This document shows positions 2,875-31,800 of a stretch of 46,520 nucleotides of DNA, one piece after another. The position numbers were made by a program, and so were the translations under genes. The first letter of the stretch is position 1. Each line of letters starts with the position of its first letter. The notes under the pieces were generated by a model. It was not told where the DNA came from. It saw nothing but the letters and a program-made list of their open reading frames with translations, and ran no database searches. Origin of the DNA: an uncultured virus (IMG/VR IMGVR_UViG_2061766007_000756) (lineage: Duplodnaviria; Heunggongvirae; Uroviricota; Caudoviricetes); IMG/VR virus record IMGVR_UViG_2061766007_000756; one strand, 5' to 3'.

Positions 2875-4614
2875 GCTCTTGCTGATTTACTTGATTTAAG
2901 CCAATCGCGCAGAAAAATTGGTATTTCTGACGAGCGCATTGCTGCAGTTAAACCAGTAGTTAGATAGTATATTGCCTACTGGAGAGAGTACCCTGATATG
3001 TTTGTAGATTTTTTACAAACTGGTAAAGATGGACAAATTCCAGATAATGGATTAAAGTTCTATTTTTATCAAAGGGTATTTTTACGTGCGGCGATGCGCT
3101 ATAAATATGTATACATGGTCTTCCCACGTGCATACTCAAAATCATTTTTATCGGTATTGGTATTAATGTGTCGCTGTATTCTTTATCCAAGATGTAAATT
3201 ATTTGTTACTTCTGGTGGTAAGGAACAAGCTGCGGGTATTGTAAAAGAAAAAGTAAATGAATTATGTACATTGGTTCCAGCACTTGAAAGAGAGCTTGAC
3301 TTGCGGCCAGGTAAAACTCGGTAGAGCAAGGACTATTGCATCTTCGTGTTTAAGAATGGCTCTTACTTTGATAATATTGCGGCCAGAGAAACTTCTCGTG
3401 GTAAGCGTCGTCATGNNNNNNNNNNNNNNNNNNNNNNNNNNNNNNNNNNNNNNNNNATTATTCCTACAATGAATGTTTCTCGTTTGTGTATGGATGGTAC
3501 TTCACATCCAGAGGAAACTTTAAATAAGAGTCAAATATTTGTTACTACTGCTGGATGGAAAGGAACATTTGCATATGATAAATTAATAGTGTTCCTTGTG
3601 CGTATGGTTACTGAGCCTGATAAAGCGTTTATTATGGGCGGTACTTGGCGCATTCCAGTATTGGTTAAACTGTTGGATAAAAACTTTTTATAGGATTTGA
3701 AAAATGATGGGACATACAATGAGGCTTCATTTAGTCGTGAATATGAAAGTAAATGGTCCGGAACTGTTGAAGATGCTTATTTCAATGGCGAGCAGTTTGA
3801 CCGTAATCGCATACTTAAACAGCCAGAATATGAGCACTCTGGCCGATCAAGTGCGCGAAGCTACTATATCATCTCTGCCGATATTGGTAGAAAAGGTTGT
3901 GACTCCGTAGCTACAGTATTTAAAGTAACTCCACAGACTGTTGGATCTGCAATAAAATCTTTGGTCAATATTGATACAAGGAATGATGAGCATTTTGAAA
4001 ATTAGGCGATATGGTTGAAAAAGTTGTATTATAAATATAAAGCACGCAGGCTGGTAATCGACGGTAATGGCGTTGGTTTAGGCTTAATTGACTATATGAT
4101 TAAGCCGCAAGTTGACCCAGATACCGGGGATGATTATCCGGATTTCGGTATTTATGGTGGTACTCAAGATGATGCTGCGCAAGAATATAAGAAATATCGC
4201 ACTAATTCTACTGAACAAGATGCTATATATATTATGAAAGCAAATGCGCCAATCAATACTGAGGCGCACAGTAATGCGTTAGTACAATTGTCTTCTGGTC
4301 GAGTAAAAATGCTTCAAGACGAACGTATTGCTAAACAAAAATTGTTAGGCACAAAAGTTGGTATGAATATGACACCTGAACAGAGGGCAGATTATTTAAA
4401 ACCATTTACCCTAACTTCCATATTAAAAGAAGAAATGATGAATCTCCGTGAAGAAAATGAAGGAGTTAACATTATTTTAAAACAAGCTAATAAAAGCATC
4501 AAGAAAGATAAATTCTCTGCTTTTGAATATGGTTTATATTATATAAAAGAAGAAGAAGAAAGCAAAAAGAAGAAGAAACGCTTTAATGCTAAAGATTGGA
4601 GATTTTATAATTAA
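2875..4614 (+). CDS. terL: Terminase large subunit (start in N gap; 4 in-frame TAG)
   Basis: One frame through TAG at 2965, 3322, 3691 and 4003, ending TAA. ATPase motifs FPRAYSKSF, SGGKEQA, RGKRRH, FVTTAG. Nuclease motifs IISADIGRKGCDS, VIDGNGVG, KDKFSAFEYGL. Confidence 0.92.
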
Positions 4615-8829: not shown

Positions 8830-9966
8830 ATGTTATTAAAGACTGAAGATTTTGTAAAGCTTGCAAAGATTGCGGCCAAAGCTAACGCTTCTTCTCCTGT
8901 TGCTTATAGTTTCAATGGAGAAAACTTTAGCTATAATGATGTTCAGGAGACCTTACGTAAGCAATTCGCAGAATTAGCTCCTGATTATCGTTCATACAGA
9001 GAAAATAAGAACACTATTTTCCGTATTATTGAAGAAACTCTTTCCGAAGTTGTTCCAGAAAGAATTAAACAGAACTATGAACAGTTCGCAGAAGTAAAGC
9101 ACTATGCTCAAGGCGACAAGCCTATTTTCCGTCGTAAAACCAACGCTCGCAGTGGCGCACGTGGCAAACAGTTCATTACCCGTGTTGGTTTGGCTGGTAT
9201 TTACGAAGTTTGGAAGCTTGGTTCTGCACAAGAGAGCTTTGAAGTTCCTACATCTGCAATCGGCGGTGCCGCTCAGATCGGATTCGAAGAATTCCTTGAT
9301 GGTCGTGTAGACTGGGCTGAATTAGTAAATATCGTTTATGAAGCCATTGATGAACTCGTATATGAGGAAATCGGTGAAGCTCTTGCAGAAGGTATCAATC
9401 AACTTCCAGCTGCTCACAAGGTGGTTGCCGCTGGTTTTGATGAAGCTGCTTTTGATGCTATGCTAAATTCTGCTAAGATGTATGGTAATGTTACCATTTA
9501 CTGCACAAACGAATTTGCTGTTAAGATGATCCCACAGGAAGCTTGGAGATACACCGAGGCTATGAAGGATGAATTATATCGTACTGGTAAGCTTGCTGGC
9601 TACAAGGGCGAGAAGATCGTTATCCTTCCAAACCAATACAAGAATGCTTTCGAGCAGGTTAAGGTCCTTGATCCAAGTCTTTGCTGGATTATTCCTTCTT
9701 CTGCCGATCAAAAGCCTGTAAAAGTTGCTTTCGAAGGCGACCTATATACAAATGAATTTGAAAACTATGACTGGTCTCATGATATTCACGTATATGAGAA
9801 GGTCGGTGTTGTTTGCATGATGGATAATGCTATTCATGTATACAAAGATACCAGCCTGAGCCAGAATGGCGTATTTAATCTTAAGGATACTGTCGCTCAT
9901 CATGTTATCGTTGATAACATTGCTGACGCAAATGGTGGATCGAACTCGGGAAACCAGCAGCCGTAA
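8830..9966 (+). CDS. Major capsid protein (378 aa)
   Basis: AAAGGAG RBS before ATG 8830. Size, position and codon bias typical of high expression. No TAG. Followed by a frameshift extension and a terminator. Confidence 0.85.
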   Translation: MLLKTEDFVKLAKIAAKANASSPVAYSFNGENFSYNDVQETLRKQFAELAPDYRSYRENKNTIFRIIEETLSEVVPERIKQNYEQFAEVKHYAQGDKPIFRRKTNARSGARGKQFITRVGLAGIYEVWKLGSAQESFEVPTSAIGGAAQIGFEEFLDGRVDWAELVNIVYEAIDELVYEEIGEALAEGINQLPAAHKVVAAGFDEAAFDAMLNSAKMYGNVTIYCTNEFAVKMIPQEAWRYTEAMKDELYRTGKLAGYKGEKIVILPNQYKNAFEQVKVLDPSLCWIIPSSADQKPVKVAFEGDLYTNEFENYDWSHDIHVYEKVGVVCMMDNAIHVYKDTSLSQNGVFNLKDTVAHHVIVDNIADANGGSNSGNQQP

Positions 9967-9987
9967 CAGCAAGTAAGCTTGCTACCG
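9948..9987 (+). promoter_or_regulatory. Programmed -1 ribosomal frameshift signal
   Basis: G GGA AAC heptamer (9948-9954) in the capsid frame, followed by hairpin AGCAAG-TAAG-CTTGCT. Both are conserved in the copy at 11238. Confidence 0.8.
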
Positions 9988-10343
9988 CACCTAATGATGC
10001 CAATAAGACTCAGTCTCAGGCCAATCAGGATGCTGTTACAGTAACACAAAATGGTAATACTATTACCATTACCGGTAGCCTTGATGCATTGAATAGTTTT
10101 GCTTCTACAAATCCTGCACAAGGCAGTGGTAAGTGGATTGGTTTAGATTTAAATACTGGACTTGACACCATTGTTGGTTCTACATGGGGAGATTCTTATG
10201 AATTAACTCAAGATGATGCTGATGAAGCAGCTTCTGTAGGACTAGGTGCTGGCCATATTATTTTCTGGACCAAGGCCGAAGATTTACCAAAAACCATTAA
10301 GGTAAATGGTGAATCCTACACTGTTGAATTTGTTGAAGGCTAA
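9948..10343 (+). CDS. -1 frame C-terminal extension of the major capsid protein (~130 aa)
   Basis: Open from GGG AAA CCA GCA GCC GTA ACA... to TAA 10343, in frame with ORF 10089. No ATG or RBS of its own. Confidence 0.78.
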   Translation, partial: GKPAAVTASKLATAPNDANKTQSQANQDAVTVTQNGNTITITGSLDALNSFASTNPAQGSGKWIGLDLNTGLDTIVGSTWGDSYELTQDDADEAASVGLGAGHIIFWTKAEDLPKTIKVNGESYTVEFVEG

Positions 10344-10376
10344 TTCATAATTGTTAATTTAATATACTTTTGAGAT

Positions 10377-10418
10377 AGGGGAGAATGGGGAAGTTCCCCT
10401 TCTCCCCTTATTTTGTTT
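10377..10418 (+). terminator. Rho-independent terminator after the capsid extension
   Basis: AGGGGAGAA-t-GGGGA agt TCCCC-TTCTCCCCT stem, then TATTTTGTTT. Confidence 0.8.
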
Positions 10419-10440
10419 ATGAGAAAAAGGAGAAATTGAA

Positions 10441-11052
10441 ATGTCTGATAATAGAAAATTTATTGTCACCAACAGAAGTGCCAGCCGTGTACATTATTCT
10501 GTGCCGGAATTGGGTATTAAAAGTCGCGATTTCCAACCTGGGGAAAGTAAGCAGATTACTTATGCTGAACTTGAAGGTTTAAGCTATATCCCTGGTGGTA
10601 AGGAATTGATTAGAGATTATTTGCTCATTAAAGATATACCAGTGAGAGATGAATTCGTTGGACATGTAGAGCCTGAATATAATATGACTAGTGCTGAGGT
10701 TAAAGATCTGATTTTGCATGGGTCATTAGATGAATGGCTTGATGCTTTAGATTTCGCTCCAGAAGGAGTGATTGACCTAATTAAGACTTTATCTGTTGAA
10801 TTACCTCTTACTGATACAAGAAAAATGGATGCCTTTAAAGAAAAGAAGGGATCCGATTTGGCAAGAATGATTCGCGCCAAACAAGAAGAAGAGGCGGAAC
10901 GTGCGGCAGCCCAGGCGCAAAGCGCCCAAGAGCCANNNNNNNNNNNNNNNNNNNNNNNNNNNNNNNNNNAAGCAGAAGTTCCGCAAAATCCTGCAAGAAG
11001 AACTTCTGGTTCAAAATATAAGGTAGTAAGTCAGGGGACGACAACAAAGTAA
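10441..11052 (+). CDS. Hypothetical head-module protein
   Basis: AAAAGGAG RBS, 203 aa, Ala/Glu/Gln-rich tail ending KYKVVSQGTTTK. No visible TAG. Confidence 0.75.
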   Translation: MSDNRKFIVTNRSASRVHYSVPELGIKSRDFQPGESKQITYAELEGLSYIPGGKELIRDYLLIKDIPVRDEFVGHVEPEYNMTSAEVKDLILHGSLDEWLDALDFAPEGVIDLIKTLSVELPLTDTRKMDAFKEKKGSDLARMIRAKQEEEAERAAAQAQSAQEPXXXXXXXXXXXXAEVPQNPARRTSGSKYKVVSQGTTTK

Positions 11053-11073
11053 TCGCAATTGAGGAGGCGTTTT

Positions 11074-12314
11074 ATGGGAACTAAATTCACCGATNNNNNN
11101 NNNNGCATGATGGATAATGCTATTCATGTATATAAAGATACCAGTCTTAGCCAGGAAGGTGTATTCAATCTTAAGGATACTGTCGCTCATCATGTTATCG
11201 TTGATAACATCGCTGACGCAAATGGTGGATCGAACTCGGGAAACTGATGCAGGTAACAGCAAGTAAACTTGCTACCGCACCTAATGATGCCAATAAGACT
11301 GAGTCTCAGGCTAATCAGGATGCTGTTACTGTATCACAAAATGGTAATGTAATTACTATTTCCGGTAGCCTTGCAGGATTAAATAGCTTCGCTTCTACTA
11401 ATCCTGCACAAGGTAGTGGAAAATGGATTGGTTTAGACTTAAATACTGGTCTTGATACTATTGTAGGCGCTAAATGGGGCGATTCTTACACTATGACTCA
11501 AGATGATGTAGATGAGGCTGCTTCTGTCGGACTNNNNNNNNNNNNNNNNNNNNNNNNNNNNNNNNNNNNNNNNNNNNNNNNNNNNNNNNNNNNNNNNNNN
11601 NNNNNNNNNNNNNNNNNNNNNNNNNNNNNNNNNNNNNNNNNNNNNNNNNNNNNNNNNNNNNNNNNNNNNNNNNNNNNNNNNNNNNNNNNNNNNNNNNNNN
11701 NNNNNNNNNNNNNNNNNNNNNNNNNNNNNNNNNNNNNNNNNNNNNNNNNNNNNNNNNNNNNNNNNNNNNNNNNNNNNNNNNNNNNNNNNNAAATTACTGA
11801 TGATATGTATATGGAATTAACTCCATAGGATACTGTTAAAGATTTGCAGCGACTTTTAATAGATGCTATTCCTGGATTTGAATTTCCAAGAGTAGATTTA
11901 GAAGACTATAATATTGAAGTTGTGCGTATGCGCGAAGATGAAGTGACCGAAGATGATTTTATCATAGGTGTTATTTGGAATGAATTAAGCGAAGATTTCG
12001 ATCCGCAAGTTCCAGATGTTCTTGTAGAACATTCTAGTTTTGCAAATGAATTAACTTCAGAANNNNNNNNNNNNNNNNNNNNNNNNNNNNNNNNNNNNNN
12101 NNNNNNNNNNNNNNNNNNNNNNNNNNNNNNNNNNNNNNNNNNNNNNNNNNNNNNNNNNNNNNNNNNNNNNNNNNNNNNNNNNNNNNNNTATAAAAGGAGA
12201 AGACCGAGTACTGAGTATGATTTAGCCAGTGGAAAAACGGAAGGACCTTTCGCTTCTAACTGGGATGTGCTCAAGAATGGTGTTTATACCTATGGCCGCG
12301 GCATTAGAGGATAA
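11074..12314 (+). CDS. Putative head-tail adaptor (interrupted in the scaffold by a misplaced duplicate and gaps)
   Basis: GAGGAGG RBS, MGTKFTD at 11074. Resumes at 11791 as ITDDMYMELTP[TAG 11826]DTVKDLQRLL, ends TAA 12314. Part of the missing middle (DFKMTSQANHLSKLL) is visible in the duplicate at 13099. Confidence 0.6.
11105..11533 (+). repeat. Diverged duplicate of 9815-10243 (capsid 3' end plus extension); probable strain allele
   Basis: Constant offset of 1290 nt, mostly synonymous differences, N gaps on both sides, inserted inside another gene. Confidence 0.85.
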
Positions 12315-15294: not shown

Positions 15295-16275
15295 ATGAAA
15301 TTTGGTGTACGCGAAATTTGCGATGTCGTTTTAAAAGCAAAGGCACCTCAAAGAATAGGCAATAAGCAATTCTTTAAGAATGAGCCTGTTATTTATTTCG
15401 ATACTTTAAAGACCTCCAGCATGGAAGGTGCCGCTACCACTGTATATGCACAGGGTGGCCGTGGTAATTCACGTCTCATCGCTTGGGAAGGTGAGCGTAC
15501 CGTTACCTTCACAATGGAAGATGCACTGATTTCCCCTGCTGGATTTGCTATTCTTTCTGGTGCTGGTTTAATTGAAGCTAATAGCAATGCTACAATTAAG
15601 CAGCATACAACAGAGCAAACTGATGCTGTTGTTGTAAATGGTTCAAGTGTTGATATTTATTTATCTGAAAAGCCTTTTGATAAGGCCGGTGAAGATTTTA
15701 TTTATGTTATGGTTCTGAAGGATGGCGAAGTTGTAACCGAGCCTTATATTCCTGCACATCCTGGTGATGTTGAGGCTGAAGGCGAAGATAGTGATTTCGC
15801 TGGCAAGTTCAAGATTTCTCTTCAAGATCGCGATGCCGATGACATTGAAGATGATTTTTATGATGGCTGCATCGTTCTTGTTGACTACTATGTAGAAAGA
15901 GCTGCTGGTGCTCAACAGATCGAGATTACTCCTGACAAGTTTGGTGGTAACTACTATCTTGAAGCTTCCACCCTGTTCCGTGATACCAATGGTGTAGACC
16001 TTCCTGCAGAGTTCATCATTCCTAACTGCAAGATTCAGTCTAACTTCACCTTTACCATGGCTTCTTCAGGCGATCCTTCTACTTTCACCTTTACAATTGA
16101 CGCATTCCCAGATTACTTAAGATTCGACAAGACTCATAAAGTTCTTGCCGCTATTCAAATCATTGACCCTGTCTCTGAGGACAAGTTTGTTACTCGTGAG
16201 AGAGAACATACTAAAGAAGAGGATGACGAAGTCGGTCGTGAACAGACTTGGTCTCCAAAGGTTCTTAAGGACTAA
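15295..16275 (+). CDS. Major tail (tube) protein
   Basis: AAGGAGG RBS, 326 aa, beta-rich (VYAQGGRGN, TVTFTMEDA, FTFTMASSGDPSTFTFTIDA), high-expression codon bias, no TAG. No sheath gene nearby. Confidence 0.8.
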   Translation: MKFGVREICDVVLKAKAPQRIGNKQFFKNEPVIYFDTLKTSSMEGAATTVYAQGGRGNSRLIAWEGERTVTFTMEDALISPAGFAILSGAGLIEANSNATIKQHTTEQTDAVVVNGSSVDIYLSEKPFDKAGEDFIYVMVLKDGEVVTEPYIPAHPGDVEAEGEDSDFAGKFKISLQDRDADDIEDDFYDGCIVLVDYYVERAAGAQQIEITPDKFGGNYYLEASTLFRDTNGVDLPAEFIIPNCKIQSNFTFTMASSGDPSTFTFTIDAFPDYLRFDKTHKVLAAIQIIDPVSEDKFVTREREHTKEEDDEVGREQTWSPKVLKD

Positions 16276-16279
16276 TTAA

Positions 16280-16672
16280 ATGATTATTCGTACTTCAGTG
16301 AGAAATGACCGCGCTCTAGCTAAGTCTAGAGCGCGTCTATCTCAAAGGGAACAGAGGCGTCTTGAAAATACGAAACATCCAGAAGGTAAACATGATGCTT
16401 TTGCAGCTGAGGTAACTGAGGCTCCTGTTGAAGTACAAGTAGTGCCGTTAAAGGAAGAAATTCCAGTACGGGAAGAAAATTTAAAAGAAATAACAGAGAG
16501 TGCGGTACCTGCTCCTGCGATTGTGGAGCCCGAGACTACGAATGTAAGACCGGGAACCGCAGTAGTCAGATCTAAGGTTCTTGATGAAATTGCTAATAAG
16601 TATAGACAAGAGCCATAGGAAAAACCGAAAAAGAAATATAAAGTTATTTCTATAGGTGATAATAAGAAATAA
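16280..16672 (+). CDS. Hypothetical low-complexity protein (130 aa)
   Basis: Reads through TAG 16616 to EKPKKKYKVISIGDNKK, TAA 16670-16672, ending 8 nt before a terminator. Confidence 0.65.
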
Positions 16673-16680
16673 AGCTTATA

Positions 16681-16713
16681 GGGGAGAGATACTTGTATCT
16701 CTCCCCATTTTTT
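16681..16713 (+). terminator. Rho-independent terminator
   Basis: GGGGAGAGATAC-TT-GTATCTCTCCCC inverted repeat, then ATTTTTT. Confidence 0.9.
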
Positions 16714-16731
16714 GCGTTAAAGGAGAAAATT

Positions 16732-18041
16732 ATGGCAACAATAGGTTCAGAATTTGCTAGATAGGTTGTTATTATTCATGGTAAACCGTAGCCTTTACCA
16801 TTTTGGGATAAATATGGTGGAGAAGATTATTCTTAGCTAAATGATATGTTACCGCCAGATAATAAAGCGATTTAGCAATTTTAGATTCAAAAATTAGAAG
16901 AAATTGCTGATATTGAAATTTAGAAGCAAATAGCTACTCATGGATCTATAGCAGCAGAGTTGAGTAAAATGATAACATCTGGAGAAATGAATAGTGCATT
17001 AAAAAATTATGAGCAACAAGAAAATAGTACTTTAGATAAAGTAATTACTAACTGGATTTCTATGTTAAATGAAGGTTATGCATATGCTTATAAAGATGAA
17101 TTTTCTGAATAGGAATATGATAAAGTATAGAATTATCTTAAAAGAATTACACAAAAATTAAATCAAATTATGAAAATGNNNNNNNNNNNNNNNNNNNNNN
17201 NNNNNNNNNNNNNNTTAGCAGATTTGCATGCCTTAATGAAAAAGGCTAATTTTTCTCCAATGGATATAACAACTTGGGTTAATCATATGTCACATTTAAA
17301 AGGTGATACAGTAGAGCAAATTGGTAAAGAGTGGTTAACAAAAAAAGGAGCTCCAAATATTAAAAGTATTGTAACTGGCGCATTAGAATATAGAGGTAAA
17401 AAATATGAGCATTAGGGTCAATTAATTCAAGACTTAATGTTAATAAGAACTGATTAGCCAGATTTATTAGAATCAGTAAAAATTACTTATACCATAGCTG
17501 GTTCACCAGATGATGTAAAAGAAATGAATTTAGGTCAATTTATAGAAATGCTTGAAAATTTAGAAAAAGATGCTAAACATATTATGTTAAGTGATGAAGG
17601 ATATGAAAATTTAATGAAGTACTCTGAATTAAACATTCAGGCAAAAGCTGGTATTAACCAATTACCATGGAATAAAAATGCTAGTACATCTGTTTCTATT
17701 GAAGATTTTACTAATGAAAAAGGCTCATTGGCATTATCTGCAAGAAGAACATTTTAGTTATTACATAGTTTAAATACATTGGATCCAAAAGAAGATCATT
17801 GGACTTTAAGAGATACATCATAGACATATAATGCAATAGCCAACTATGGATTAGCAACTGCTTTAGCTAAAGTATTGCATTTAGAAGCTAATTTTGGTAA
17901 CCAATATTTATTAACACCTAGTGGTTTTATTTCATTCCCAGAAAGAATGAAACAATTATTTAAAGAAGAAAAGTATAAGGCATATATGCAAGGTAGTATT
18001 AATATNNNNNNNNNNCTGTTAATGTTACTAATCATACTTAA
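16732..18041 (+). CDS. Hypothetical protein, TAG-dense (~430 aa, 12 visible TAG)
   Basis: AAAGGAG RBS, ATG 16732. The only in-frame stops are TAG (16762, 16789, 16834, 16873, 16882, 16921, 17110, 17128, 17413, 17455, 17755, 17821). End after the last gap is approximate. Confidence 0.75.
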
Positions 18042-18053
18042 TGTATTTTTAAC

Positions 18054-18082
18054 TTGACAAATATAAATTTTTCTGTTACAAT
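18054..18082 (+). promoter_or_regulatory. sigmaA-type promoter inside the tail module
   Basis: TTGACA (18054-59), 17 nt, TACAAT (18077-82), with a TGn extension. AAAGGAG RBS downstream. Confidence 0.75.
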
Positions 18083-18772: not shown

Positions 18773-21700
18773 GACTTGGGTTTTAGGCAGATACTAGTCA
18801 AGCTAAAGCTCAAATTGATGCATTAAATCAATCATTGCAGAAAATAGCAACTTCAATACCAAATTTAAAAAATAAATTTGATACTTCTGCTATTCGTGAT
18901 GCTAGTAATGCTGCAATGGAATTGCAACAGCATTTACAAAAAGCTACAGATGTAAATACTGGCAAGTTAAATCTAGCTACTTTTTAGGCTTCTTTAAAGG
19001 CCTCTAATAAAGATTTAAATCAATTAAAAAGAGATTTAGAAAAAATTGGTCCAGAAGGTCAAGATGCTTTTATGCAAGTATCTTAGGCTATTGCATATGC
19101 AGAAAATCCTATTAAAAGAGCGAATAAAGCATTAGATAATTTTAAAACTACTTTAATGAATACTGCAAGATGGCAAATTTCTTCAAGCATTTTACATGGT
19201 TTTATGGGGGCTATTCAATAGGCTTATGGATATGCACAAGATTTAAATCAATCATTAAATAATATTAGAATTGTTACTGGGTACTCTACTGATGAAATGG
19301 CAGCATTTGCTACTCAAGCAAATAAGGCAGCGCAAGCATTAAGCACAACAACAACTAGTTATACTGATGCAGCCTTAATTTATTATCAACAGGGTATTAG
19401 AGATTAGGCACAAATAGCTGCTCGTACAGATGCGACTATTAAATTAGCAAATGTATCTAGACAAAGTGCTGAAGAAGTTTCGCAACAAATGACAGCTATT
19501 TGGAATAATTTCTATGATGGTAGTAAAGCATTAGAATATTATGCTGACGCTATTACTGCATTAGGTGCAAATACTGCATCAAGTTCAGAAGAAATTGCTA
19601 CTGGTCTTGAAAAATTTGCGGCAGTGTCTAAAACAGTTGGTTTATCATATGAATATGCAACTGCTGCATTAGCAACAATTACAGCTCAAACTCGTCAAAG
19701 TGCTGATACCGTTGGTACTGGTTTAAGAACTTTATTTGCACGTTTAGAATCTTTAAAACTTGGAGAAAGTCTTGAAGATGGCGTTGATTTAAATAAATAT
19801 TCTAAAGCGTTGCATGATGTCGGTGTTGAAGTATTAGACACTAGTGGCCAAATGCGTAATATGGATAATATTCTTGATGATTTGGCTATTAGATGGGCTA
19901 ATTTAGGTCAAGCTTAGAAAATGGCTTTGGCTCAAACCGTTGGTGGTGTCCGTCAATATACAAACCTTATTGCATTGATGGATAATTGGGATAAAATGCA
20001 ATAGAATGTTATTACAGCACAAGAGTCAGAAGGCACATTATCACAACAAGCTGAAATTTATGCTGAATCTTGGGAAGCTGCTCAAAAACGAGTTAAAGCG
20101 GCTTTAGAAGAAATTTATGGTAAATTAATTGATGATGATTTTTTTATTTCTTTAAATGATACTTTAGCAACTACTATTAATATTGTAAGTGGTGTTATAG
20201 ATAGTTTTGGTGGTTTAAAAGGAATTTTAATGGCTATTGCTGGTATTTTTATGCAATCATATGCAAAAGAAGTACCAAGAATATTAGAAAGATTAAAAGA
20301 AGATATTTTAATAACTACTAATAAAGCTCAATAGGCTGCGGCACAATTACAGACTAAAAATTCACAAAGTTTNNNNNNNNNNNNNNNNNNNNNNNNNNNN
20401 NNNNNNNNNNNNNNNNNNNNNNNNNNNGCTGCTGAAGCATAGTTTTTAGCAACAATTAGTAAACGCAAAGCTGAATTAAATGCTAATAGCGCGAAATATT
20501 CAAAAGATGAATTAACAAGAGCAAATAACGAAATTTCTCGATTAGAGTTACAAGGAAAAAGATTAATTGAAATTGGACAGCGATATGATGATTTAAAAAC
20601 AAAAGTTGGTAGTTTAAGAAATAGTTTANNNNNNNNNNNNNNNNNNNNNNNNNNNNNNNNNNNNNNNNNNNNNNNNNNNNNNNNNNNNNNNNNNTGGTTC
20701 TAATACATTAATGCAAAGCGTAAAAGATGGGTCTGTTGCTTATGATGATGCTAAAATAAAACTATAGGCTTATGCAGATGCTTTATTGTAGACTAATCCT
20801 AATGCACAAGAATATAAGGATTTTGCAAAAGATGTANNNNNNNNNNNNNNNNNNNNNNNNNNNNNNNNNNNNNGAAGATTCTGTTAAAAAATTATAGGAA
20901 CTTATTAAAGCATTAGTTGATTATTCTATGACCGGGGCTGATAAAAGTAGTGAAAATTATAAACGAACTTTAGAATCTATTGGTGATAAATCTGAACAAG
21001 TTCAAGGCCAGTGCAGAGAAATGGGTGCGGCAGCAGTAGAGGCTGGACAAAAGTTTGTTGAAGGAGCACATGGCATTAAAACATTTGATCAAGGCTCAAA
21101 TAAATTACAATAGCATATGACTACTACTTCTGAATAGATCGTAACTTTTGCTGGTACTTTAATGACTTTAACAGCAGCTATGAATTCAATGAAAAGACTC
21201 GGAGATGTATTTTCTGATGAAGACTCATCTGCTGTTGATAAGGTTAGTGCTGCTATTGGAGCATTAGTTAGTATTATAACTGTTTTACAAGGCCTTAAAA
21301 AAATACAAGTTGCTTTAAATAATGCAGAGGCGGGATCATTAGGAGCGGTTATAGCTGGTTGGATTACTGAAGCTTCAACTAAAGGTGCAGCAACTGTGGC
21401 TCAAGAAGGTTTAAATGCAGCTATGTATTCTTGTCCATTGGTCTGGATTATAGGTTTAGTAGTGGNNNNNNNNNNNNNNNNNNNNNNNNNNNNNNNNNNN
21501 NNNNNNNNNNNNNNNNNNNNNNNNNNNNNNNNNNNNNNNNNNNNNNNNNNNNNNNNNNNNNNNNNNNNNNNNNNNNNCAGAAGAGGCTAATAATAGATTA
21601 AAAGATATTAAAGATACTGTAGATGGTTATACTTCAGCGATTGAAAAATTAGAATAGTGTACTAAAGGTACAGAAGCATGGGATGAGGCCTTAGCTAATG

Positions 21701-24700
21701 TATACCAAAAGATTGATGAATTATTGAAAAAATATCCAGAATTATTGTCTTATGGAAATTTATTTAATGCAGATGGAACTTTAAATACATAGGTTTTAAA
21801 TGAGTTTTTACAAAAGGCAACCAATAGTGCTGCTGCAGCTACAGCAGCATCTTATAGAGCAACGGCTAAGTCTCAATAGGCATAGGTGACTGCTGAAGCT
21901 AAACGTATTAATGATAAATATATGGTTGAACAAGATACTGGTGAAACAGATGACGATGGTAATAGAATTACTGAAAATATAAATAAGGGTCATATAGATA
22001 AAAGTCTTGCAACAGTTCAAACAGATTTAGATAAGTTAATGAGTTCTTATAAAATAATTGGTAGCTCAAGCTTGGAATTAGGTGATGTTTATCAATCTGT
22101 TGGTAATGTTACACAAGAATATGCAAATACTTTAATAGATTTAGCAAATAAACAAATTCAAGCACAAACCGCAATGAGTAATGCTACTAAATTGACTATT
22201 GATAAATGGGCACGTGATAATGGTCAAGAATTAGTAGACGGTCAAAATGCATTAATGTCAGTTGAATATGATAAATTATATGAAGATTTTTCTAAGGCCG
22301 TTAAAGAAACAAGTAATACAATGGCTCAAACTGCGACAGCAGATACTTCGCATTTGGGCGCTATTTTTAATGGAACATCTTTGGAAGGATTGTCGATTAC
22401 AGAAGCTTATAACAAAGCAAGAGGAAAAAATGAATCAACTGCACGTAATGCTGTACGTGGCTCAAAGGGTAATAGAACTTATGCCTATTTAGATGAAGAT
22501 GGAAAAGAAGTAGAATATAAATTAGAAGATATGTAGGCTAAAATTGCTGCTTATGCTGCTTTAGAAAAAATGGGCAAAGCGGCAGAAGAAGCATCTGCCA
22601 GAGTTTCTCAAATGAATACTGGCGTAGCTAAATTTATTGGTTCTGGATCATTAGAAAATTTAAGTCGTAGAGAATATAAGTCTATTAGAGATTCATTCGA
22701 TGAAAATGGAATTACTCAACAAACTGCATATGATTATTTATTAAAATAGACTGGCTCAGAAGAATTAGCAAAAAAATTAACAGACGATTTTGTAAAACAG
22801 ATGAGCGCAGGATGGAATGATATTTTTGATGAATTACCTAAAGAATTAAGTGAAAAAATAACAGAAGGTATGACTATCGCTAGTGCAACATCTTTAACCA
22901 AAACTTTATCTAAATTAAATTTTGGTCCTTTAGGAGAGGAAGCTGGTACAGAGTTTTCTAAAGGTCTTAATGACATGTTGACTGGTATGGATGAAGCCGA
23001 TTAGCAAAATGCATTAAATCAATTAGCTAATATAGATTGGTCTAATTGGGATGCTATGGAATAGGCCAATGCTATTTTACAATCTTTTGGTCATGAATTA
23101 GATTTAACCGATCCTCGCTGGAAAAAGTTTACTGATTATATGCATAAAGCAACTGTTGCTCAACCTGATTTTGCAAAATTAAGAGATACTTTATCATCAA
23201 TTGTTCCAATTTTACAAAATTTAAATTTTGGTAGTATTATTAAAGATGAAGATTATTAGAAATTAATTAAATNNNNNNNNNNNNNNNNNNNNNNNNNNNN
23301 NNNNNNNNNNNNNNNNNNNNNNNNNNGATCAAGAAGATATGTTAAAAGCCACCAGAGAAGCAATACAAGAAGAAAAAAAAGAATTAGATAATAGAGCAAA
23401 ACTTGCTAATAATTTAAATAAAGCTGGTTGGCACAACACCGTAAGTGGAGAAGCTATTGATTTTACAAATGTTGATGATATGAAACGTTATAATTTATCA
23501 ACATTTTTGGGTTCTTCATCATTTGGTGATATTGTTGAAGCTATGGGATATACTACTGATTAGATACAAAAATGGTCTGATAGTGGTAATACTGAAGCTT
23601 TAAATCAGTTTTATGAAAAGTTTGCTGAATTTACATCTCAAGACTATGGAGAATTAAGTGAACAAGTAGATGAGCGTTTAGCTTCTATGACTACTAATTT
23701 AGAAGAATTAAATGCTATACAAAGTGAAATTTCTCAAAAAGCTTATGATAAACAATTTAAAGCACTTAGCACAGAAGCATTAAACTCAGCTAATTCAATA
23801 GATGAAGTAAAAAAAGTTTTAGAAGAATATAATCTTGATGAAAGCGTTGCAGCAGATAAAATTCGTGAATTAGGCCTTGCTGCAGTTGATCAAGCTAAAT
23901 CATTTGATGAATTAAATGAAATTCTTAAAGAATATGGTTTACAACCTGAAGATATAGCTAAAAAAGAACATGAATTAGCTTTAGAAGCAGCAAATGATGC
24001 AGAAACTTTAGATGAATTAATTGAATTACGTAAAACCTATGGATTAACTACTGAAGAAGTTGGTGAAAAGACTGCTAATTTTGCCAATAATTTATTGGCT
24101 TTGCATAAATTATTAGAGCAAGGTCTTATTGATCAAGAACAATATAATAAAAAAGCTCAAGAACTTGTAAATGCAAGATTTGAAGCAGTTAATACTGTAT
24201 AGGAATTAGATAATTTAGTTTCTGAATTAAATGCAGCAGCTAATTTATTAGGAGATGATAGTACTTCATTATTTAATCAATATTCTGAAACATTAATTCG
24301 ATTAGGCGAAGCTTGTGAAAATGCTACTAAAGAAACTTATGATTATAAAGAAGCATTAGAAGATGTAATGCGAGCAGAAGAAGAGCGCAATCAAGCAAAT
24401 ATAGCATTAAGTTCTTTAATGGCAGATGACACACATAATGAAAGTGAAGAATTAGAAGCTACTAAAAGANNNNNNNNNNNNNNNNNNNNNNNNNNNNNNN
24501 NNNNNNNNNAAAAGAAGTTAGCTGAAGCTGAAGATTATTTGCGTGCAGCCACCAAGGCATCAGATAGCGCTTCAAAATATGGTTTTGATGCAAAAGTAAT
24601 TGAAAATCAAGCTAAAGAAATTCGTCAATTAAATGGAGACATTGAAATTTCTGCAGAAGAAGCTGTTGAATTAGCAGTTGCAAATCAAAGATTAAATAGA

Positions 24701-27700
24701 GGTATTAAAACTCTTAATGAAAATTTTGAAGATTGGCGTCAAACCTTAGAGTCAACAGATTCAACTTCTGTTGAATATGCTGAAACCGCTACACAAGTTG
24801 AGTCTGCTATTGCTGATTTAATTGGGGCTGCAGATGATTTCGATTTACCACCAGACTTTTTAGAAATGCCTGGTGTTTTAGATAAGATAGAATTAGCGGC
24901 TANNNNNNNNNNNNNNNNNNNNNNNNNNNNNNNNNNNNNNNNNNNNNNNNNNNNNNNNNNNTATTAATGAGTAGCAATTTGAAAATTATAAATTAACTGT
25001 TCTACAAGGTATTCAAGATATAACAGATAATTTACCTTCTTTATTAGATAGTACAATGACCATTCAAGAAGCAATGAATGGAACTGCTGGTACTTGGGTT
25101 TAGTCATTAAATGAAATGGCCAAGGCTACTGGAATGTCTGTAGAATAGATGAATGGATTATTAAATCAATTAGGAGTGCAGGCCAAAGTTGATGTAATAT
25201 CTGTTCCTCAAGATATGGAAGTTCCTACTTATGATGAATATTCTCAATTAGTTGAATCCGAAAAAACTCATGCTACTTATAAAGGACCTGATGGAGAAAC
25301 TATTGAATATGAAATACCTAAATATCATAGAAGAACTTGGACCGTACCAGGTTAGCCATTGACTGTTGAAGGATATGCTTAGGTTGCTTAGATTAGCACT
25401 GTTGAAGGAAAAACTCCAGAAGCATCAATTAATTTTACTGGTGTTGGTGGTACTTCTAAAGCAGCAGGTACCTCTAGACCTCGTGGTGGAGGAGTATCTC
25501 CTCGCTCAACTTCGCCAAAAACAACCAAAACTTCAACTCCAAAATCTACTAAAAAAGAAGTTAAAGAACATAAAAATTTAACTGATGAAAAAGAACGTTA
25601 TCATTTGATAAATCAGCAAATTGAACGCCAAACTAATTTATTAGACAGATTAAGTAAAAACAAAGATAGAGCATTTGGTCCTAATAAACAAAAATATTAT
25701 GCACAAGAATTGAAATCTTTAAAAGATATGGGTAAGATGTATGAAGAACATCTTCGTCAATCTTCCGCATATCTAGCTCAAGATAAAGCAGTAATGCAAG
25801 CTTGGGGTGCATAGATTTCAGCCAAAGATGGTTCTATTTTGAATTATGATGCTTTATTAAAGGCACAAATTGATGCTTATAATAGAGCTGTAGATAGATA
25901 TAACGCTTCTAGTCAAACCGATGCCGATAAAGATGCTTTAAAAGCTGCTGAAGATAGATTTAAGAAATTTCAAGATGATTTAAAACAATATGAAGATACA
26001 GTTAAAACTCATGAAGAAGATATAAATAAATATATCGACAATATGATTGAACAATATGACACAATGCAAGCTAAAACTGCTGATGCCATTGAGTTCCGTA
26101 TTGAGTATGATGATTCTGTATTAGATTTCTTAGATAAATTAATTGACAGATTAGATAGTTGGAATGGTAGTATGTTTGCGGCCGTGGATATTATGGGTAA
26201 ATTAAATGATAAGACTGGCGCACTTATTGAGAAAAATAAAGATTTAGAAACTGCTACTGCTGAAACTCTTGAGCATTTCTTAATGGATTATAAAGAATTC
26301 GATAAGAATGGCAATATTACATTCCAAACTGGATTATCTAAACAAGCTTCTCAAGAATTTATTGGTAGATTTAATGCTGGTGAATTGACTACTGAAGATA
26401 TTCAAATGCTTGCTCATATGCCAGAAGAAGAACGTCAACTTCTTATGGACTATGCACAACAAAGACAAGATAATACTGATGCTTTAATTGAAACCGCACA
26501 AGCTGTTGTTGATGATGTAGAAAGATAGTTTAATGATGCTAAGGACGAACTTGCGGAAGCCGCTCGTCCGATCAGAGAGGCCACAGCAGCATTAGATAAC
26601 TATGCAGCTATTATTGATATTGTTGGTGCGGATTATCTTGGCGTAACTGATGATATTATGCTTAGATTCAGAGACCAACAATGGAATGTTTTACATGATA
26701 CTACAATGGCGAATAAGGCAACCATGGAAGCTCTTGGCGAACAAAGAGATATGATTGAAGACCTTATGAATAAAGCATTGGCTGCTGGTGATGATGAACT
26801 AGCAGAAATGTATCGTGAAAAATTAAAGGGTATTAATGATGAAGTTCAATCAGCAACAGAAGAATGGTATTCATCTTGGCAAGCTGAATTAGGTAAATTA
26901 GAAGAAGATTTTGAAAAGCATATTGATGAGATTAAAACTAAGGCATTGGATCTTGCGGCCGGACCTAATAACACATGGCAATCATTAAAAGATACTATGG
27001 ATTATGCACAAAAAGCTGCTGAAAGATTTTTGCCTGAATATAAAGAAATTTATGAATTTAGTAAATTAAATCGTGATATAAATAAATCTATTGATGATAC
27101 TGATAATATTAAAAATAAACAAGCATTAAAGAAATTACAAGAAGAGATTAATAAATTACAAGAGCGTTCTGGAGAAATTAGCCAATATGATTTAGACAAT
27201 GCTCGCCGCAAATATGAATTAGAATTGGCCAGATTGGCTCTTGAAGACGCTCGTAGCGCCAAAGAAGTTGTCCGTTTAAGTAAAGATTCTGAAGGTAATT
27301 GGTCTTATATCTATACAGCAAATGAAGAAGATGTTGCAAATGCTGAACAGAATTATGAAGATAAATTATATGCTATGCAATCAGCCAATGCTGATTATAT
27401 AAATAATTTACAAGGTCAATTAACTCAAGCTACTGAAGATTATTATAATAAAGTTGCTGAAATTAATCTTGTTTATAAGGACGATGATGATAGACGTCGT
27501 GAAGAATTAGCTAAAGCAAAAGCGCAATATGAAGAAACCATGGGATATTATAGTAATGAACTTCAAAAAGCTATGGATAACAATAAAGAGCTTTATGAAG
27601 AAGATTGGGCATGGTATTCTGATTATACTAAGAAAATTAATGACGATCAAGGTTATCGTCTTGGCGAATTAGATAATTATATAACTGATTTTAATGATAC

Positions 27701-28782
27701 AATGCTTGGTATGGCTACTGGATATGACAATCTGGNNNNNNNNNNNNNNNNNNNNNNNNNNNNNNNNNNNNCAAATGAACGAAACTTATGAACATTTAGC
27801 CGAACATATTAAATTATCTATGGAAGATGCTGGAACTTCTGTTGATGAATTTGCTCAAGAAATGATGGAGCAAGTTGATGAGGTTATTGTTCCAAAAGCT
27901 GATGAAGGACGTGATGCGGTTGAAGAATTAGCTGATACAACAGTTGATGCAATGCAAGCTCTTGTTGATTAGGCTGATGCTTGGCGCAGAAAATATGAAG
28001 ATGATATGCAAGCAATTATTGATAAGAATAATTTGGTTGTTAAATCTATTCAAGATGTAACTGGTGCATTATCTGTATTGCATAAACAAGAAATTGGTCA
28101 TGATGAAAGTACTGGTGGTTCTCCAGAAAATCCAGAAGGCTCTGGAACTGGAAGCACAGGTGTCGGTAAGGATGCTACTGGTTCTGGTAGTAAATATAGT
28201 AGAAGCGATTTTATGAATTATACTTATTCTGGGAATGGTACGGACAGAAAGTATTATATTAATGGACAATATGTTGGACGTATTGTTGGATTTGAAAATG
28301 GTGTATCTGTACAAGATACGACAGAAGCGAAAGTAATTCAAGCTTTAATTAATGCTGGTATTTGGGGTAATAATTATACAGCTGGTACTTGGAATCCAGT
28401 AAATCATAGAAGCAAAGAAGAAATCTTTAAACAATTTGGATTTGCTTCTGGCGGTTATACTGGTGAATGGGCTGGTAATGAAGGTAGACTTGCTATGTTA
28501 CACCAAAAGGAATTAGTATTAGATGAAGATGATACAAAGAATATGCTAAAAAGTGTTGAAATTATCAGATCTCTTGCTTCAATGATTGACCTTAATGCGA
28601 AAGCTTCTGAATTTGCTATTGGTAATTTGAGTGCGGCAAGCGCAAAATTCATGCCGACACAACTTGAGCAAACGGTAACTATTAGTGCAGAGTTCCCGAA
28701 TGCAACCGATAGAAATGAAATTGCTGAAGCCTTTGATATTTTAATTAATCAAGCATCTCAATATGCTAATCGAAAATATTGA
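18773..28782 (+). CDS. Tail tape measure protein (~3,300 aa; start in N gap; many TAG)
   Basis: LGF[TAG 18784]ADTSQAK, with further in-frame TAG at 18985, 19084, 19219, 19405, 19915, 20002 and others. TMP core (LGANTASSSEEIATGLEKF, GTGLRTLFARL), long Ala/Glu/Lys helical region, C-terminal FASGGYTG...AMLHQKELVL. Ends TGA before a terminator. Confidence 0.9.
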
Positions 28783-28898: not shown

Positions 28899-31800
28899 AT
28901 GGCAGGNNNNNNNNNNNNNNNNNNNNNNNNNNNNNNNNNNNNNNNNNNTGTATCAAAGCGTATAGAAGATCTTGGCTATGATAAAACTATTATATGCACA
29001 ATCACCGATGATGGTGACTCATCCAATGGGCATTATGTCGTTAATAATGGGTCAACCAGTTTTGACGCATATTCAGAAGATACTGGATATAAGAAAAACG
29101 ATAGTGTCTATGTAACTGTCCCAAAAGGTGATTTTACTCAACAAAAAATAATTATAAGTAAATATACGGCAAACAATGGAACAGATCCAATTGCTTATAT
29201 TTCACCATTAGAGAATATTTATTTGGTTTCCAATAATTTGGTAACTGGTACTAATTTAAGAAACAATTCAATACTTGCTAATGGTAAGTTAGAGCCAGAA
29301 TATGTAGAGCGTGATGAGTTAGAAGGACGAGACGTTCATTATATTCCTCCGGGTAGATATAGACTTATTTGGGAACAGGATTTAACAGCCAATCAAGATG
29401 CGGCATTATTAAATAATGCAGTATTTGATACCTTAGCTGTTAAAGCAAAATTTAAGTGCGGCTTGGGGTCTTTATATAATATGAAATCAGGCCACTATGG
29501 ATTGATTTTTGAATTATTCTCTGTTGTAAATCCTGATGCTACTCCAATAGAGTATAGAGTTACCAGATTTGATTTTAATAATGGAGAATTTTTCGGTAAT
29601 CCATATATGTTTTTATCTTATGTTGAATAGGAAAAATATTTTGGTATTAGTGCTTTAGGTAATATNNNNNNNNNNNNTATCAAAGCAGCGATTTTAAATA
29701 TCGTGGTAATGTCGATATTACAGATTCAGTTGTACCAACTCCGGCAGCAAGCATTAATTTAACCGAGTTACAAGCAAGATATGATGCAGCAGTGGCCGCA
29801 TATAATACTCATAATACTGCTGAAAATTATTTAGCAAGACAAGAGGCTGAATAGGCTTTAACTTCTGGATAGAATTTAATTGTTCGTGAAAATAAAGGTT
29901 TGTTAAATAATATCTTTGTTGAAGATTTAGAAGTTTATTTTGGTATGGATTTAACTCGTGTTGCTGATAATACTTTTTCTATTTATACTAATGGTACATC
30001 TACTTTTAATACAAATAAAGGTGATGACTATAATACAAAATTAATTATGCCAGTTTGGTTTAATAAAACTGAACAGGGTGAATATATAGGCTTTTCTGAT
30101 GGAATTTATGATTTTCTTGAATCAACAACTGAGCCGGTCGGTAAAAATTATACTGAAGATGATTATATGACTCTTGCGGCTTATTATAATAGTGCAATGA
30201 GACTTGATTAGCAATAGTTGATTGATATGGGTATTCCAGCTGTAAAAGAGCTAATGTTTATTTATGCTTACATGTTACAAGTCCAATAGAAATTAGATCT
30301 TTTGTATAGAAAAGCTTCAACTGATATAAATAGATGTTATACTAAAGTACAACAAGATTTGCGAGGTTATCAGACCGCTGGTCAAAGAGCCGAAACACTT
30401 GAACAATATGAAAGTGTAACTGCTCAAACAGGTTCTTATGCTAATCTATTAAAATATTTAGGAATTATTAAAGAAGATACAAATACTTCAGAAGCATGGA
30501 ATAATATTATTATTCCAAGTTTTCGTTAGGCGATAATTAATTCATTAGTTGAATTTGGCTAGGTATATACTGGTCAACGACAAATTTCTTCAATATCAAC
30601 TTATCCTGATAGTGGGGATGATGTGCCAGGTATTATGACAACATTAGTTGGACAAATCGATACTGTAAAAACTTGTTTAGCCAATGCCAAAAATAGTGGT
30701 TTGAGTTATTTTAATAATATTCATACATATGTTGATAGTGACGTAATGGCTATTTGGGACAATTGGAAAGCTTCTTTAGAAAAAGTTTTTGAAGAGTGTG
30801 AAGAAATAGTCACATCAATTGAGAACATTTTAGAAAGAACTAATCCTGGTGAATCAGCTAGTGATGCAGAGAAGTTGAAATATTGGGGAACAATTTTATT
30901 TCAATATATATCTGTTTATGATAAATTCCAAAATAGTAAATTTGAAGATTTTGAAGCAGAGCATCAATTATTTATTGATTCTTATGCTAATCGTTATTGT
31001 ATTTATTATTATAGATATGTTGATAATTATTTTAATGAAAATGAAAAATTTATGCAAAAAGGTTGGCAACGAATTGAATCATTAACAAATTTAGGCTTGC
31101 CTGATGGTTACACAACAGCTGATAATGGGGATCTTATGTACGAGCCTCGCGCAAAAGATTCTTCATTTACTTATACTATTGGTGATGCAACACTTAGATC
31201 GGAAAGAATTCAAGCTGTTTTATTTTATAATCATTAGATGTTTAAAAGTAATATATTAACATTCTATAATGAAGAACCAGTAGTTGATGAATCTACTAAA
31301 GATACTATTACTGGTTTATATATTTAGCTCACTGATGAAGTTTTAGGCACTTCTTTAGATGAAGAAGGTAATCCAGAAGTAATACACAAAGATACTTATA
31401 ATTCTAAAGAAACTTATCAACTATATGATATTACTAATACTTTAGTTAATGGTGCTGAGGCTTATAAAAAGCGCAAATTGCGTGCAAGATATAAAAGTGC
31501 GCGCAAAGGTGATAATTATTTAAAAAAGAATTGTGTTATTTATTGGTATGTTCCTTTAACTGGCACAATGTTGACTTATAGTCGTGAAGATTTGATTGCG
31601 GCCGGCTTTTCTGTGTATGAGCCAGGTTATTTACGCGGAACAGACGCACTTCAAGAACAAAAACGTGCGCTTAGAAGAGTTGATTATTTAACTGATGAAG
31701 ATTATCAAGAGGCAATCGCTAATTTAGAAGCGAATTTTACTGGTGATCTTTATCCAGCTCCTCCTGCTCNNNNNNNNNNNNNAAGGATATATGATGGCTT

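Follow-up and report, generated by a model that had tools for sequence, protein, structure and literature searches.

A probable programmed −1 frameshift extends the major capsid protein of a large uncultured tailed phage with a beta-sandwich domain

The window, by which we mean the whole 46,520-nt stretch of DNA analysed here (IMG/VR record IMGVR_UViG_2061766007_000756), is a gapped scaffold with 43 runs of N and 34% G+C that derives from a large tailed phage. On its plus strand, at 8830–9966, it carries the gene for a major capsid protein that is very probably extended by −1 ribosomal frameshifting at a G_GGA_AAC heptamer near its 3′ end. Read in the zero frame, this gene encodes 378 amino acids and closes with TCG GGA AAC CAG CAG CCG TAA, the stop codon occupying 9964–9966. 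The heptamer (9948–9954, plus strand) sits in the X_XXY_YYZ register of the capsid frame, over codons Gly374 and Asn375. From 9948 the −1 frame is open for 131 codons and ends with a TAA (10341–10343), giving a conserved plus-strand open reading frame (ORF) at 9948–10343 that is already open 12 codons ahead of the zero-frame stop. The first ATG, GTG or TTG in this frame is the TTG at 10089, its codon 48, with nothing earlier that could serve as a start signal. A terminator-like hairpin (10387–10405) followed by a T run, together 10387–10414 on the plus strand, lies after the −1 ORF rather than after the capsid stop and would close the capsid transcription unit, and in relatives that lack the extension a similar G-rich hairpin lies directly 3′ of the capsid stop. 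The capsid ending with its heptamer, the 131-codon −1 frame lacking a start signal and the position of that frame ahead of the terminator had been noted in a first-pass annotation made from the letters alone, and were found as described; the trans-frame product, which it had put at about 510 residues, came out at 504 on recalculation, with 375 residues from the zero frame and 129 from the −1 frame appended after Asn375. The public record of the ORF, an Atlas record, begins at the internal TTG (10089–10343, with codon 48 read as Met), and the domain is truncated in databases as a result.

Homology and synteny identify the upstream gene, very probably, as that of the major capsid protein. Using tblastn, we found relatives of its product in 60 phage records, among them Phass-1 (protein identity 44%, E 1e-85), Bacillus phage Kirov, in which the gene carries the annotation major capsid protein (27.6% identity, E 6e-15), large Enterococcus siphophages and phages of the lactococcal 949 group, with ‘structural protein’ genes. 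The Phass-1 homologue passes the Pfam model PF25209 Phage_capsid_4 (E 6.9e-07, 30.2 bits against a cut-off of 27); the window protein itself matched the NCBIfam HK97-fold major capsid protein model at E 0.02, below the cut-off, and falls in the PHROGs family phrog_4088, which carries no functional annotation. A search of PDB sequences with the capsid alignment profile returned nothing at E ≤ 1. The gene order in the window is portal (phrog_2739), a protease-like phrog_3313 protein, a small ORF and the capsid gene, which matches the Kirov order of portal, protease, hypothetical protein and major capsid protein.

The strongest evidence for a shift comes from relatives. Two scans of IMG/VR, one for the extension and one for the capsid, supplied 7 loci and 80 of 327 candidates, respectively, and with the window and four annotated phage loci these made a comparison set of 90 loci, whose capsid 3′ ends fall into 64 distinct contexts. 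In 15 contexts the capsid end is followed by a −1 ORF that runs for 100 codons or more, and in a sixteenth (L010/L086) the ORF is cut by the contig end. We found an in-frame X_XXY_YYZ heptamer within the last six capsid codons in 13 of these 16 contexts versus 1 of the 48 contexts without the ORF, where the sole instance, C_CCA_AAG in the L066 group, corresponds to a rate close to chance expectation. The heptamer is GGGAAAC in seven contexts (the window, L011, L012, L076, L046, L047 and L049), GGGAAAT in four (L018, L034, L006/7 and L057/8) and AAACCCT in two (L009/64 and L010/86), and a stop codon stands directly 3′ of it in 11 of the 13; among the contexts compared, the heptamer and the adjoining stop appear to be the most constant features. 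The codon that precedes GGA varies (TCG, CAG and CTG, for Ser, Gln and Leu), with a third base that is always G. A locus without the extension, L017, has the same tail peptide as the extension-bearing L018 but spells it AGC GGA AAC. These patterns suggest that the shift site is kept among homologues beyond what the protein sequence needs. On the other side of the site, similarity among the −1 ORFs sets in immediately past the heptamer, with VT.SKLAT.P, and their alignment of 14 sequences has 28 invariant columns. The first-pass annotation had suggested looking for conservation of GGGAAAC in homologous capsid genes, and had named as the contrary outcome homologues that lack the heptamer and start the downstream ORF from a ribosome-binding site and ATG of its own; what we observed was a heptamer at 13 of the 16 ORF-bearing capsid ends, GGGAAAC in 7 of them, and no conserved start codon.

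Substitutions within the window point the same way. A fragment on the plus strand at 11105–11533 contains a capsid 3′ end, the heptamer (11238–11244), a TGA and the beginning of an extension, and is 87% identical to 9815–10243 (56 differences in 429 nt). The first-pass annotation had read it as a second allele in a separate copy. It is flanked by runs of N, 10 at 11095–11104 and 257 at 11534–11790, and interrupts another gene (11065–12314), which reads MGTKFTD, then the fragment, then ITDDMYMELTP. In L002 the homologue of that gene is contiguous at this point (MGTSFTKIYDSFLSKVTDDMYM), and at the position of the fragment the window gene misses about eight codons, not 700 bases. Because the fragment is bordered by N runs and lies inside another gene, we take it as a scaffolding artefact that carries a strain variant, with no second genomic copy. 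The interrupted gene has an in-frame TAG at 11826–11828. As a strain variant the fragment is informative: the heptamer and stem are kept and the zero frame stops at once (GGA AAC TGA), as the annotation had said. Of the 8 differences ahead of the heptamer, 6 leave the capsid-frame amino acid unaltered; past it, scored in the −1 frame, synonymous codon changes outnumber non-synonymous ones by 22 to 11, which agrees with the annotation’s remark that the differences are mostly synonymous in that frame. Read in the zero frame past the overlap, the changes are nearly all non-synonymous and include stops. Selection therefore appears to switch frame at the heptamer, with purifying selection acting in the −1 frame beyond it. 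The variant preserves the heptamer together with the preceding 14 nt, and the 8 nt that follow (9955–9962) are wholly replaced; among the matches listed, this variant block was not recovered from reads.

The unchanged 14 nt form an island, GGTGGATCGAACTC (9934–9947, plus strand), that holds a Shine–Dalgarno (SD)-like GGTGGA 9 nt before the shift site and has a presumed function. Together the island and the heptamer make up the 21-mer GGTGGATCGAACTCGGGAAAC (9934–9954), which is identical in the window, the variant copy, L012 and the L046 group and differs by two bases in L011. The extensions of the lineages that share the 21-mer are only 55–60% identical, and the flanks are saturated with changes. 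This pattern points to a constraint at the nucleotide level upstream of the shift site. The annotation’s SD-like GGTGG is indeed present 9 nt upstream (9934–9938); pairing is strong in just 6 of 13 contexts, and about half of the contexts lack such an element.

Downstream, the −1 ORF encodes a compact domain. The AlphaFold2 model of the extension, built from 14 sequences, is a beta-sandwich with two short helices (predicted local distance difference test (pLDDT) 94.3, predicted template modelling score 0.86). A Foldseek search of this model against the PDB gave no match at E ≤ 0.001 (best E 0.084), and a VIA all-against-representatives comparison gave a weak best Z of 5.1 (3hbz_A, root-mean-square deviation 3.1 over 79 residues) followed by many ties with immunoglobulin (Ig)-like and fibronectin type III-like folds; the modelled fold would thus be Ig-like only loosely. 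The extension had no match in PHROGs or NCBIfam, none by tblastn against 50,697 phage records and nothing usable in an ESM Atlas search, and its only Pfam hit, Myco_19_kDa, was sub-threshold (20.6 bits, where 23 is the cut-off).

When 1.84 billion representatives were searched with a profile of the extension, 359 proteins were recovered at E ≤ 0.001, of which 215 remain at a threshold of 1e-10 and 36 at 1e-30. In P0170 the domain continues, in frame, a phrog_422 major head protein unrelated to the window capsid, and in three proteins of about 445–480 residues (P0018, P0165 and P0205) it is fused in frame at the C terminus of a phrog_2729-like virion protein. The phrog_2729 part of P0018 is 44% identical (E 2e-71) to the product of the window ORF 15295–16272. 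That ORF encodes a phrog_2729 ‘virion structural protein’, tail-tube-like by position, and the window carries the domain on its capsid instead; the ORF behind it (16280–16669) was considered as a further copy of the domain and did not align with it. The domain thus seems to be a promiscuous C-terminal appendage of virion proteins, a behaviour that passages of a review by Atkins et al. (2016; PMC5009743) describe for Ig-like domains. A protein of 2157 residues (P0067) has the domain eleven times in tandem, and a secreted bacterial protein of 647 residues with a signal peptide (P0005) has it twice; these tandem arrays suggest a surface-adhesion module common to phages and hosts, and surface display with an adhesion-type function would fit the domain.

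The extension is patchily distributed. When 67 distinct capsid cores, of which 17 have the extension and 50 do not, were placed on a quick maximum-likelihood tree, the presence of the extension required 12 changes, at least 8 of them forced by well-supported branches; shuffled trees needed 15.2 changes on average, and 10 of 500 shuffles were as low as the observed value. Near-identical capsid cores differ in the extension in three pairs (L034 and L035, L018 and L017, L009 and L075). The extension appears, by this comparison, to be frequently gained, lost or swapped, and as its distribution takes at least 12 changes on the tree, the shift site would have accompanied the domain through many independent gains or losses. 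Close relatives without it (L013–L016 and L033) have longer in-frame C-terminal tails, with capsid proteins of 399–415 residues, which look like a different way to decorate the same capsid.

The heptamer that tracks the ORF among relatives strongly supports programmed −1 frameshifting as the means by which the capsid protein is extended, which was the central claim of the first-pass annotation, and the change of substitution frame supports it too. We propose that most ribosomes would terminate at the TAA at 9964 and release the 378-residue capsid protein, and that a minority would slip one base back on G_GGA_AAC by tandem re-pairing, the Gly tRNA moving from GGA to GGG and the Asn tRNA from AAC to AAA. 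Slipped ribosomes would continue in the −1 frame to 10343 and produce a 504-residue capsid protein, the Gly/Ser/Asn-rich tail of which would carry the 125–130-residue beta-sandwich domain outside the head. The low efficiency expected of the heptamer in bacteria would keep decorated subunits minor, like T7 10B. Both the occurrence of the shift and its efficiency are what we infer from these comparisons.

A number of observations weigh against this proposal, beginning with the fact that the trans-frame protein is here a computational prediction. Neither the capsid protein nor any of its 24 relatives has a direct Pfam match (0 of 25 aligned members at E ≤ 0.01), and the AlphaFold2 model of the capsid protein from the 25-sequence alignment is poor (pLDDT 52.4). 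The heptamer itself belongs to a class with a poor record: according to main-text passages of Sharma et al. (2014; PMC4066793), the efficient class in Escherichia coli is V_VVA_AAR and heptamers that end in AAC or AAU shift poorly there, while those passages give no value specific to G_GGA_AAC. Since such heptamers are poor in E. coli, G_GGA_AAY counts as a ‘eukaryotic’ type from which low efficiency is expected, and efficiency may be very low unless the host differs.

The annotation had placed a hairpin about 8 nt downstream of the heptamer; the stem AGCAAG/CTTGCT exists, as a perfect 6-bp stem in AGCAAG-TAAG-CTTGCT (9968–9983, plus strand), but it starts 13 nt past the heptamer, comes within 5–8 nt only through bulged outer pairs and is not conserved. 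The 70 nt downstream of the heptamer fold with −13.4 kcal/mol (z = −0.99). Across 15 sequences, 68.9% of cells were paired compared with 66.2% after shuffling, and 42 of 500 shuffled sets did at least as well; RNAalifold found no consensus structure downstream of the heptamer, and part of the pairing there arises because the Ala-Ser-Lys-Leu-Ala codons are conserved. The hairpin is probably not a conserved stimulator; not every bacterial shift site requires a stimulatory structure. When the 20 nt that precede the site were scored for pairing with the 3′ end of 16S rRNA against each capsid gene’s own 20-mers, 6 of 13 contexts ranked in the top 5% and 5 were unremarkable. The nearby stop codon and the upstream SD-like island may still play a stimulatory role.

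Further points of the same kind come from individual lineages. Three of the 16 extension-bearing contexts (L020, L036 and L029) have no canonical heptamer. L020 (3640–3655) and L036 (near 3634–3645) end CAG GGG TAG, with a G_GGG tetramer before the TAG, and one tRNA could slip there, at a codon that is decoded slowly; were TAG read as Gln in L036, the capsid gene would gain about 88 nonsense codons, so TAG is probably a stop. On a more speculative reading, the replacement of the heptamer by G_GGG and TAG in these relatives would mean that what really stimulates the shift is a slowly decoded next codon, be it a stop or a recoded amber. L029 (3600–3616), the single extension-bearing relative with neither heptamer nor tetramer, ends GGG GAC TAG, has a GTG in the −1 frame 4 nt past AAGGGG and may have converted to separate initiation. 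In the L046 group an ATG occurs at codon 15 of the −1 frame. Finally, the 8-nt replacement in the variant copy creates GGGAAAC TGA TG, in which an ATG overlaps the stop; a separate start is possible in that variant, and its case for a shift is weakened rather than strengthened.

Starts of this sort would suit an arrangement in which the downstream ORF encodes a separate small decoration protein, translated by initiation of its own or by termination–reinitiation at the capsid stop, with GGGA or GGTGG as a weak SD and the heptamer incidental. Several relatives also have an ATT in the −1 frame 5 nt past GGGA, and main-text passages of Sharma et al. (2014; PMC4066793) indicate that G-rich shift motifs can serve as an SD for low-level initiation in the −1 frame. 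The putative starts vary in kind and position, however. The window, L011 and L076 are start-less over the first 50 codons; in L012, L006/7, L057 and L009 the first start comes only at codons 26–45, past the VT.SKLAT.P motif, and in L018 and L034 it is a TTG Leu codon inside that conserved motif. Nor would a separate protein account for a heptamer that follows the ORF through the contexts as it does, preceded by a codon whose third base is fixed, and wherever else the domain occurs, it is joined covalently to a larger virion protein. We regard separate initiation as unlikely.

It is more improbable still that the frame offset is an artefact or a sign of decay, such that an assembly indel hides a domain that is in frame or the ORF is an unexpressed, dying remnant. 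The scaffold is heavily gapped, with its many N runs and at least one clear mis-join, and on other capsid and tail proteins the domain does lie in frame. The identical −1 offset nevertheless recurs across many samples, in 16 separate contexts. Two DNA runs of a single sample, possibly the source of the window, gave contigs that cross the site without an indel, one matching 9808–10900 with 0 differences and another 9700–10524 with 1. An RNA library (metatranscriptomic, from another study) gave a contig that spans 9931–10267, likewise free of indels, with 13 substitutions and with none of the listed changes in the heptamer; such contigs cannot show rare variants, nor do they prove transcription. 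A dying ORF would also sit poorly with the synonymous excess in the −1 frame, the 28 columns invariant in 14 sequences, a fold modelled at pLDDT 94 and TAG codons at conserved Gln positions. Least probable in our view is that the fusion is made by slippage of the polymerase and not of the ribosome. Transcriptional slippage typically needs longer homopolymers; the site offers runs of just 3 G and 3 A, and the alternative AAACCCT is also without a long run. The RNA-library contig crosses the site without an indel, although contigs cannot exclude rare variants. Slippage of this kind is a known route to trans-frame products in phages and insertion sequence elements, as the review by Atkins et al. 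(2016) notes.

Frameshifting at G_GGA_AAC, the reading we prefer, would occur in this phage next to a change in the genetic code. Under translation table 11 the late genes of the window are broken, and long plus-strand ORFs appear once code 15 (TAG as Gln) is applied; 24822–27791, for example, becomes one ORF with 12 in-frame TAGs. The late genes at 16693–18057, 21415–23391, 24822–27791 and 31695–34769 have 12–17 in-frame TAGs each, and the capsid gene and the extension have none. In three relatives (L076, L046 and L009) in-frame TAGs fall within the extension, and where positions were compared by eye, both TAGs of L076 and one of L046 sit at CAG positions of the window. Phage Phass-1, the closest named capsid relative, is filed in the ‘Caudoviricetes code 15 clade’, and passages of the phAss-1 paper (PMC10607447) report that its late genes are recoded with TAG as Gln; the word ‘frameshift’ occurs 0 times in that paper. 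No tRNA genes, suppressor tRNAs included, were found within the window. The first-pass annotation had remarked that the frameshift coexists with codon reassignment. The reassignment in the window phage is real, as its ORFs and relatives show; nothing we found links the two. In-frame TAGs are scarce over the 6 kb examined in five loci that carry the extension (L020, L036, L029, L034 and L006), which may use the standard code; as the extension is present in such TAG-poor loci, the cassette would not be tied to recoding. The sequencing runs that contain the stretch are from bovine gut and rumen, and the host is probably a Gram-positive rumen bacterium, a placement drawn solely from the AGGAG-type ribosome-binding sites and the hosts of relatives.

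Extension of a capsid protein by frameshifting is already known, and the present case leaves that concept unchanged. Passages of the review by Atkins et al. (2016; PMC5009743) describe −1 frameshifts that extend the coat protein in T3, in A2 and in the Listeria phages A118 and A500, in line with the precedents named by the annotation, and attribute the C-terminal additions of A2, A118 and A500 to mobile domains that landed out of frame. The likeness to 10A/10B of T3/T7 (K1F) lies in a −1 shift just before the major capsid gene ends, which yields a longer subunit (PMC5009743, PMC13370021, in part), presumed to be a minority in the window phage as 10B is in T7. The T3 extension is described in the same passages as Ig-like; the capsid family and the extension domain of T3/T7 are unrelated to those of the window. 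Whereas the T7 site is of the G_GU type with a distant 3′ element (PMC5009743, in part), that of the window is G_GGA_AAY with a stop nearby, and the window phage reads TAG as Gln and has a host that is probably a Gram-positive rumen bacterium. Lactobacillus phage A2 (gp5A/gp5B) and Listeria phages A118 and A500 are closer in kind: they are siphophages of Gram-positive hosts in which a −1 shift at the 3′ end of the capsid gene appends a C-terminal, Ig-like domain. Their extensions have no sequence relation to that of the window (tblastn, 50,697 phage records) and come with protein evidence, whereas that of the window is predicted from sequence. The A2 shift site is reportedly C_CCA_AAA with a stem-loop; the window site has no conserved structure. 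Phass-1 shares the capsid, at 44% identity, and late genes with TAG as Gln, but has neither extension nor heptamer, and its next gene directly follows the capsid gene.

What is new here is in the detail: the domain family, its patchy, cassette-like distribution, the turnover of shift motifs and the reliance on a type of heptamer regarded as weak in bacteria. One tentative and, in our estimate, rather doubtful interpretation joins these as a self-contained mobile recoding cassette that recombines onto capsid 3′ ends, composed of a Gly-rich linker, the constrained island GGTGGATCGAACTCGGGAAAC, a deliberately weak ‘eukaryote-type’ heptamer at the stop and a new display domain. If so, the cassette would bring its own dosing device and decorate a small, fixed fraction of subunits. 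Across relatives the shift motif turns over (GGGAAAC, GGGAAAT, AAACCCT and GGGG-TAG) and the trans-frame product would be retained; if slow decoding of amber codons stimulates the shift, the state of suppression could tune decoration in phages that read TAG as Gln. Gene callers miss the trans-frame product, and the decorated form of the capsid would thus be absent from the annotations of widespread 130–200-kb rumen and gut phages. The domain family, which has neither a name nor a Pfam model, counts 359 cluster representatives; it is present on capsids and tail-tube-like proteins as well as on one or more bacterial surface proteins, and is a candidate adhesion module for contacts of phages with mucus or cells. 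A heptamer class that is poor in E. coli and yet maintained in bacterial viruses is, in addition, a testable case.

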